In this document: piece by piece, positions 18,775-21,700 of the stretch
Numbering within the stretch: position 1 is the first letter of the stretch
Layout: the number at the start of each line of letters is the position of its first letter
NCBI RefSeq assembly: GCF_029227855.1
Contig: NZ_CP074356.1
Length of the DNA: 64,000 bases
Strand: one strand, 5' to 3'
Origin: Escherichia coli
Lineage (GTDB): Bacteria > Pseudomonadota > Gammaproteobacteria > Enterobacterales > Enterobacteriaceae
Program-made: the position numbers

Positions 18775-21700
18775 TAGGCTGCCCAGGCCGTTCCGACTCT
18801 ATAAGGACACGACAATGACGATTTTTGATAATTATGAAGTGTGGTTTGTAATTGGCAGCCAGCATCTGTATGGCCCGGAAACCCTGCGTCAGGTCACCCA
18901 ACATGCCGAGCACGTCGTTAATGCGCTGAATACGGAAGCGAAACTGCCCTGCAAACTGGTGCTGAAACCGCTGGGCACCACGCCGGATGAAATCACCGCT
19001 ATTTGCCGTGACGCGAATTACGACGATCGTTGCGCCGGCCTGGTAGTGTGGCTACACACTTTCTCCCCGGCCAAAATGTGGATCAACGGCCTGACCATGC
19101 TCAACAAACCGTTGCTGCAATTCCACACCCAGTTCAACGCGGCGCTGCCGTGGGATAGCATCGATATGGACTTTATGAACCTGAACCAGACTGCACATGG
19201 CGGTCGCGAGTTCGGCTTCATTGGCGCGCGTATGCGTCAGCAACATGCCGTGGTTACCGGTCACTGGCAGGATAAACAAGCCCATGAGCGTATCGGCTCC
19301 TGGATGCGTCAGGCGGTATCTAAACAGGATACCCGTCATCTGAAAGTCTGCCGTTTTGGCGATAACATGCGTGAAGTAGCGGTCACCGATGGTGATAAAG
19401 TTGCCGCACAGATCAAGTTCGGTTTCTCCGTCAATACCTGGGCGGTTGGCGATCTGGTGCAGGTGGTGAACTCCATCAGCGATGGCGATGTTAACGCGCT
19501 GGTCGATGAGTATGAAAGCAGCTACACCATGACGCCTGCCACACAAATCCACGGCGAAAAACGCCAGAACGTGCTGGAAGCGGCGCGTATTGAGCTGGGG
19601 ATGAAGCGTTTCCTGGAACAAGGTGGCTTCCACGCGTTCACCACCACCTTTGAAGATTTGCACGGTCTGAAACAGCTTCCTGGTCTGGCCGTACAGCGTC
19701 TGATGCAGCAGGGTTACGGCTTTGCGGGCGAAGGCGACTGGAAAACTGCCGCCCTGCTTCGCATCATGAAGGTGATGTCAACCGGTCTGCAGGGCGGCAC
19801 CTCCTTTATGGAGGACTACACCTATCACTTCGAGAAAGGTAATGATCTGGTGCTCGGCTCCCATATGCTGGAAGTCTGTCCGTCGATCGCTGTGGAAGAG
19901 AAACCGATCCTCGACGTTCAGCACCTCGGTATTGGCGGTAAAGAAGATCCTGCCCGCCTGATCTTCAATACCCAAACCGGCCCAGCCATTGTCGCCAGCT
20001 TGATTGATCTCGGCGATCGTTACCGTCTGCTGGTTAACTGCATCGACACAGTGAAAACACCGCACTCCCTGCCGAAACTGCCGGTGGCGAATGCGCTGTG
20101 GAAAGCGCAACCGGATCTGCCAACTGCTTCCGAAGCGTGGATCCTCGCTGGTGGCGCGCACCATACCGTTTTCAGCCATGTGCTGAACCTCAACGATATG
20201 CGCCAGTTCGCCGAGATGCACGACATTGAAATCACGGTGATTGATAACGACACCCGCCTGCCAGCGTTTAAAGACGCGCTGCGCTGGAACGAAGTGTATT
20301 ACGGGTTTCGTCGCTAAGTAGCCGCATCAGGTGTGTAACGCCTGATGCGACGCTGACGCGTCTTATCAGGCCTACACGCTGTGATTTTGTAGGCCGGATA
20401 AGCAAAGCGCATCCGGCATTGTTTTCCCCCTCGCCCCTTTGGGGAGAGGGCCGGGGTGAGGGGAAACGACCTCTCAGGAGTCAACATGTTAGAAGATCTC
20501 AAACGCCAGGTATTAGAAGCCAATTTGGCGCTGCCAAAACATAACCTGGTCACGCTCACATGGGGCAATGTCAGCGCCGTTGATCGCGAGCGCGGCGTCT
20601 TGGTGATCAAACCTTCCGGCGTCGATTACAACGTCATGACCGCTGACGATATGGTCGTGGTCAGCATCGAAACCGGTGAAGTGGTTGAAGGAACGAAAAA
20701 GCCCTCCTCCGACACGCCAACTCACCGGCTGCTCTATCAGGCATTCCCGTCCATTGGCGGCATTGTACATACGCACTCCCGCCACGCTACCATCTGGGCG
20801 CAGGCGGGCCAGTCCATCCCGGCGACTGGCACCACCCACGCCGACTATTTCTACGGCACCATTCCCTGCACCCGCAAAATGACCGACGCAGAAATCAACG
20901 GTGAATATGAGTGGGAAACCGGTAACGTCATCGTCGAAACCTTCGAAAAACAGGGTATCGACGCAGCACAAATGCCCGGCGTCCTGGTCCATTCTCACGG
21001 CCCATTTGCATGGGGCAAAAATGCCGAAGATGCAGTGCATAACGCCATCGTGCTGGAAGAGGTCGCTTATATGGGGATATTCTGCCGTCAGTTAGCGCCG
21101 CAGTTACCGGATATGCAGCAAACGCTGCTGGATAAACACTATCTGCGTAAGCATGGTGCGAAGGCATATTACGGGCAGTAATGACTGTATAAAACCACAG
21201 CCAATCAAACGAAACCAGGCTATAATCAAGCCTGGTTTTTTGTGCACAGAAAACCCCCAGCTAGGCTGGGGGTTCCGGAAAGCTTTCAGCTTTAAGCCAG
21301 TTATTAAAACCCCTTTTGATTTGTTAAAACACCTTGCGGTCTGGCAACTGCAAGTGTCAAACAAGAAATCAAAAGGGGGTCCCAATGGGGAACGAAAAGA
21401 GCTTAGCGCACACCCGATGGAACTGTAAATATCACATAGTTTTTGCGCCAAAATACCGAAGACAGGTGTTCTACAGAGAGAAGCGTAGAGCAATAGGCAG
21501 TATTTTGAGAAAGCTGTGTGAGTGGAAAAGTGTACGGATTCTGGAAGCTGAATGCTGTGCAGATCATATCCATATGCTTGTGGAGATCCCGCCCAAAATG
21601 AGCGTATCCGGCTTTATGGGATATCTGAAAGGGAAAAGCAGTCTGATGCTTTACGAGCAGTTTGGTGATTTGAAATTCAAATACAGGAACAGGGAGTTCT

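Follow-up and report, generated by a model that had tools for sequence, protein, structure and literature searches.

The araB gene in the 64-kb stretch of Escherichia coli DNA analyzed here (hereafter, the window) terminates at an amber codon that is followed, in the same frame, by further sense codons and a second stop codon, which raises the question of whether this codon is a genuine and recent nonsense mutation and, if so, what it would mean for the ribulokinase and for the arabinose operon. Direct reading of the sequence, the ORF list and the translation were concordant on this layout, as the first-pass annotation had described it. The junction between araB and araA runs ...CCG GCA TAG GCT GCC CAG GCC GTT CCG ACT CTA TAA GGACACGACA ATG..., so that the eight in-frame codons from GCT to CTA stand between the amber codon and TAA. 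The residues lost from AraB are nine (QAAQAVPTL), and araB translation stops 27 nt early. The same annotation had equated 557 plus nine residues with the length of K-12 AraB, and the record of araB in MG1655 (68348..70048, 1701 nt) bore out this figure of 566 aa. The features under discussion are listed in Table 1.

Table 1. Coordinates of the araB-araA features in the window
Feature	Position	Strand	Basis
araB (L-ribulokinase), now 557 codons plus amber stop	17104..18777	+	ORF list, translation
Derived amber TAG, ancestral CAG (Gln558); mutated base 18775, C to T	18775..18777	+	Genome comparison
Former last eight araB sense codons (AAQAVPTL) and ancestral TAA (18802-18804), now untranslated	18778..18804	+	
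araA ribosome-binding region: Shine-Dalgarno AAGGA (18803-18807), 7-nt spacer, ATG (18815-18817)	18803..18817	+	Sequence reading
araA (L-arabinose isomerase), intact, 500 aa	18815..20317	+	ORF; annotated araA in relatives

The assignment of the gene as araB was confirmed by both its profile scores and its neighborhood. Against cut-offs of 583.25 bits for TIGR01234 and 428 bits for NF003154, the 557-aa product scored 934.1 and 857.2 bits, respectively, and thereby far exceeded the thresholds of both ribulokinase equivalog profiles. The gene order, comprising the divergent araC, then araB-araA-araD and then polB, was the same as in the strains 144 and JNEC-KY178, and the araC-araBAD order is also that of K-12; araC, araA and araD were all intact in the window. 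Residues 2-552 of AraB took up positions 1-535 of the 536 positions of TIGR01234, and the Pfam domains FGGY_N (residues 4-190) and FGGY_C (residues 291-501) were both present in the 557-aa product. By this full profile coverage and by its two FGGY domains, the product keeps the complete conserved core of the enzyme. As for the wider surroundings, a pair of IS200C elements, each about 722 bp long (7871-8592 and 21232-21952), roughly 99% alike and in inverted orientation, bracket roughly 12.6 kb containing sgrS/sgrT-sgrR, espY2, thiBPQ, yabI, araC and araBAD. The same arrangement was found in JNEC-KY178, and recombination between the two copies could invert the bracketed segment.

To place the amber codon among E. 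coli strains, a 401-bp query spanning the site was searched in 5,426 complete E. coli genomes. Matches were obtained in 5,359 of them, the top identity being 99.8%, which corresponds to one mismatch. Three of the 5,359 records matching the araB-araA junction (query window 18500-18900), in three complete assemblies, were labelled as plasmids. From araC to the araA start, the window differed from strain 144 at two bases, and within araB only at 18775 (T here, C there); with so few differences over this interval, the amber pattern, with the old frame and the old stop codon behind it, is not a matter of chance. The nearest complete genome was that of JNEC-KY178, a Japanese clinical isolate, with 99.9% identity over 24 kb. 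Over the 64 kb, the two sequences were distinguished by 10 SNPs, among them the one at 18775, and by a single in-frame 15-bp repeat-unit indel; neither frameshifts nor homopolymer indels were seen between them. Strains 144 and JNEC-KY178 both annotate a 566-aa AraB (WP_000951847.1), the gene of which lies in the same operon context and is identical to that of the window but for one base; there, codon 558 is CAG (Gln) instead of TAG, and the product is nine residues longer. The now untranslated segment downstream of the amber codon matched the end of the coding sequence of this allele at every base. This comparison confirmed the CAG-to-TAG change near the C-terminus that the first-pass annotation had proposed, at exactly codon 558. 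Codon 558 is accordingly a derived nonsense allele, being CAG in the relatives, with the old frame and the old stop codon still downstream.

K-12 MG1655 AraB (b0063, NP_414605.1, 566 aa) showed the same tail design and was identical at 551 of the 557 residues. Its tail reads ...APAQAAQAVATL, with Gln at codon 558, and its gene ends at the same TAA 10 nt before araA. The K-12 protein differs by six substitutions in residues 1-557 and by the lack of a premature stop, and it carries Ala564 at a place where the lineage of the window has a Pro codon.

Three further differences from JNEC-KY178 were noted in passing. The SNPs at 7229 and 45773 each directly precede a start codon, those of leuD (CACAC[T/C]ATG) and caiT (AATT[T/C]ATG), respectively, and their position in translation-initiation regions is probably due to chance. 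The repeat-unit indel lies in espY1 (- strand, about 28467-29228), in which the window carries an extra 15-bp tandem unit, GGTAGCACCGTCCAC, at 28596-28610; the gain is in frame and adds five residues to the product of this T3SS effector gene. Together with espY2 (10763-11332), espY1 represents T3SS effector genes inserted in an otherwise K-12-like leu-ara-polB-rapA-djlA region; the naming of both genes follows the annotation of the near-identical JNEC-KY178.

We then assessed how widespread the amber allele is, using a 33-mer centered on the TAG (ACTTCCGCCCCGGCATAGGCTGCCCAGGCCGTT) and, as a control, the same 33-mer with C. The TAG 33-mer was found in none of the 5,426 complete E. coli genomes, whereas the CAG control was found in 5,249 of them, in 5,247 as an exact match, and the null result for TAG is thus not attributable to a limitation of the search. 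A TAG-carrying 28-mer likewise had no exact match in the GTDB representative genomes or in the JGI metagenome contigs. The exact 557-aa product was on record only once, through the Logan contig ERR3675778_21146 (2117-3788). This contig was rejected as a second carrier, since it stops a single nucleotide past codon 557, and that nucleotide is the C of CAG; exact-sequence look-ups can evidently mislead in this way, a contig that ends after codon 557 mimicking an amber-truncated protein. With TAG absent and CAG widespread in these collections, the sequence comparison indicates that T at 18775 is the derived state, and the TAG allele appears, within the collections searched, to be unique to the source of the window. 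These counts agree with the view, taken in the first-pass annotation, that the amber codon is a strain marker, and none of 120 enterobacterial AraB clusters ended at the amber position. A literature search on ribulokinase nonsense alleles and the ribulokinase C-terminus found nothing relevant; in a paper on a BL21(DE3) metabolic model (PMC6150544), the only mentions are of a D-ribulokinase resembling AraB and of a nonsense mutation in btuB. The allele is, in sum, a previously unrecorded but ordinary strain-specific mutation.

An allele seen in one sequence only must also be considered as a possible error of sequencing, base calling or assembly, in which case the real strain would have CAG and a 566-aa AraB. 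None of the other sequences searched carried the TAG allele, the only record of the exact 557-aa product is the contig artefact, and a singleton nonsense change is a typical error signature. Against these points, the assembly of the window otherwise looked clean: relative to JNEC-KY178, its 64 kb showed only the 10 substitutions and the single repeat-unit indel, which is in frame, with no homopolymer indels or frameshifts, and such a density of private SNPs is normal between close strains. Systematic nanopore errors cluster in Dam/Dcm motifs; the mutated base lies outside such motifs, and no clustering in them was seen among the 10 SNPs that separate the window from JNEC-KY178. We therefore consider an error unlikely, and infer that the base call of T at 18775 is real.

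The mutational context was examined as well. The change resembles the classical CAG amber mutations, including those at the lacI Dcm hot spots, in being a C-to-T transition that converts CAG to TAG. Amber hot spots at Dcm sites (CCAGG) have been described for lacI, and these differ from the present case in that the mutated C here is outside any Dcm site: its ancestral context is GGCA[C]AGG, and it is found in CACAGG. An origin from deamination of 5-methylcytosine at a Dcm hot spot was rejected, since the mutated C does not fall within a CCWGG motif. The nearest Dcm site, CCAGG at 18783-18787, is 8 nt downstream of the mutated base, and its inner C opens the CAG codon of Gln561, which is unchanged. 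This codon offers the textbook context of an amber hot spot and yet is unmutated, while the mutated CAG stands three codons upstream.

If the mutation is real, the amber codon might still be read through, either by a suppressor tRNA (e.g., a supE-like glnV allele) or because it is an engineered or selected suppressible marker, and full-length AraB would then be made. With Gln inserted at UAG, as by supE (glnV44), the ancestral Gln558 would be regained exactly, in accordance with the suppression in supE backgrounds that the first-pass annotation foresaw. Since the ancestral codon specified Gln, a Gln-inserting suppressor would give back precisely the wild-type protein, and the eight downstream codons and TAA are intact; such intactness is, however, expected after any recent mutation. 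A search with ARAGORN found no tRNA genes in the 64-kb window, which accordingly yields no positive evidence for a suppressor, and the genomic background (espY1, espY2, IS200C, and a clinical isolate as nearest relative at 99.9% identity) points to a wild or clinical lineage, in which no suppressor would be expected, rather than to a laboratory suppressor strain. To our knowledge, suppressor alleles are not a known feature of natural isolates. Read-through was for these reasons judged extremely improbable.

To evaluate what is lost with the nine residues, we compared the C-terminal regions of AraB homologs. Among the 120 enterobacterial AraB clusters, the lengths were 562-569 aa, with the exception of one 506-aa entry that has the full E. 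coli tail. In these clusters, the segment HYLPxxAPA is followed by a linker the length of which varies by 0-5 residues through insertions and deletions, and then by a short terminal motif, and the amber codon falls exactly at the start of this linker. The tail after HYLP was at least about 12 residues long in all 120 clusters, and its end was recurrent, reading A/T-L-T-H in most enterobacterial genera and V-A/P-T-L in E. coli. Because a tail with a recurrent terminus was retained by every enterobacterial homolog examined, it may be under weak constraint, whether at the level of the protein or of the nucleotides shared with the araA ribosome-binding site.

Outside this family, the tail was frequently absent. 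Of 82 near-full-length relatives drawn from a 50%-identity representative library, 38 did not extend past the position corresponding to residue 557. Those of the closer group (37-68% identity) terminated in the multiple alignment at the equivalents of residues 542-557, and P0121, the nearest relative outside the family (68% identity), terminated exactly at 557. The closest solved structure, that of the ribulokinase from Bacillus halodurans (3QDK), aligned to residues 4-539 of the query (E = 3e-89); the two proteins share the two-domain FGGY kinase core, but 3QDK has no alignable C-terminal region past about residue 539. Relatives with a C-terminal region of the 3QDK kind, recognizable by the pattern ...LHDxFG...MKRL..., carry a different and longer extension.

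Structure prediction pointed in the same direction. The AlphaFold2 model built on a diverse alignment of 94 sequences had a mean pLDDT of 94.8 and a pTM of 0.94 and was confident to about residue 554, with the last helix spanning residues 526-549. Residues 555-566 formed the sole segment of at least three residues with a pLDDT below 50. An alignment of little depth (27 sequences with identities of 86% or more) gave a model with a mean pLDDT of 41.7, which was discarded as unusable. From the alignments and the model, the last 12-17 residues of enterobacterial AraB are predicted to be a lineage-specific disordered extension past the last helix of the FGGY fold.

On these grounds, we propose with fairly high confidence that the locus records a recent single-base nonsense mutation, with an AraB that is most likely active and an araA that should at most be partly uncoupled. 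A recent C-to-T change at 18775 in a natural E. coli lineage close to JNEC-KY178 would have turned the codon for Gln558 into TAG, and a ribulokinase of 557 aa would be made, lacking nine residues of the tail. Since the lost residues belong to an unstructured tail confined to Enterobacteriaceae, the enzyme would most likely remain active and the strain would still grow on L-arabinose. The retention of activity by the truncated AraB is most likely in view of the position of the tail outside the conserved and structured parts of the protein, as judged from the alignments and the model, and the amber codon is probably near-neutral, which gives indirect support to the view of the first-pass annotation that enzyme activity is little affected.

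A damaging effect would require instead that loss of the tail destabilizes or inactivates AraB or weakens the coupling of araA, giving an Ara-negative or poorly growing strain and marking an early stage of pathway decay. A tail with a recurring terminal motif is present in every enterobacterial AraB examined, and the distance from the araB stop codon to the araA start has grown from 10 to 37 nt. In addition, AraB now ends in ...TSAPA, a small and rather non-polar stretch that, to judge from known degradation signals at protein C-termini, could alter the stability of the protein in the cell and could in principle draw C-terminus-specific proteases. These arguments are countered by the disorder predicted for the tail with AlphaFold2, by its location outside the equivalog profile TIGR01234, by the many ribulokinase relatives that lack it and end at the equivalents of 542-557, and by the operon itself, in which araC, araA and araD are intact and araA is served by a separate, good Shine-Dalgarno sequence, namely AAGGA with a 7-nt spacer, in a region free of stable structure. 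Taking both sides together, we regard a damaging truncation as unlikely.

With respect to araA, the ancestral stop codon of araB lies 10 nt upstream of the araA ATG and is overlapped by the araA Shine-Dalgarno sequence; both this sequence and the ATG are unchanged, while termination of araB now takes place 37 nt upstream of the araA start. The RNA of the araB-araA junction had no significant structure in comparison with shuffled sequence (z = 0.65), and a junction structure that would make araA dependent on coupling was rejected on this value. As the junction folds no better than shuffled RNA, the araA start is unlikely to need unfolding by the ribosome that translates araB. The base change creates no consensus for a promoter or terminator at the mutated site, the only hits being elsewhere in 18600-18950. 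Because araA retains its own Shine-Dalgarno sequence and start codon, its translation would at most lose some of the coupling to araB. Transcriptional polarity should be negligible, 27 further untranslated nucleotides being too few.

In one more reading, the enterobacterial AraB tail, with its recurring terminal motif that overlaps the araA ribosome-binding site, would have a role of its own, be it in adjusting the AraB:AraA ratio by way of translational coupling or in controlling the turnover of AraB, and the amber codon would have been selected. We deem this very improbable. If it were true, the amber codon would be a selected retuning of arabinose catabolism and not a neutral marker.

Under the favored reading, namely a recent mutation that most likely leaves AraB functional, the finding bears on how such genomes should be read. 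Gene callers will give a 557-aa AraB for this strain, which calls for a caveat in its annotation, and the amber codon serves as a unique single-base marker for the strain or its lineage. The predicted disordered extension of AraB would be useful knowledge for C-terminal tagging and for the design of AraB fusions. In practice, sequence alone is no reason to score the strain as arabinose-negative, as its araB is most likely functional.
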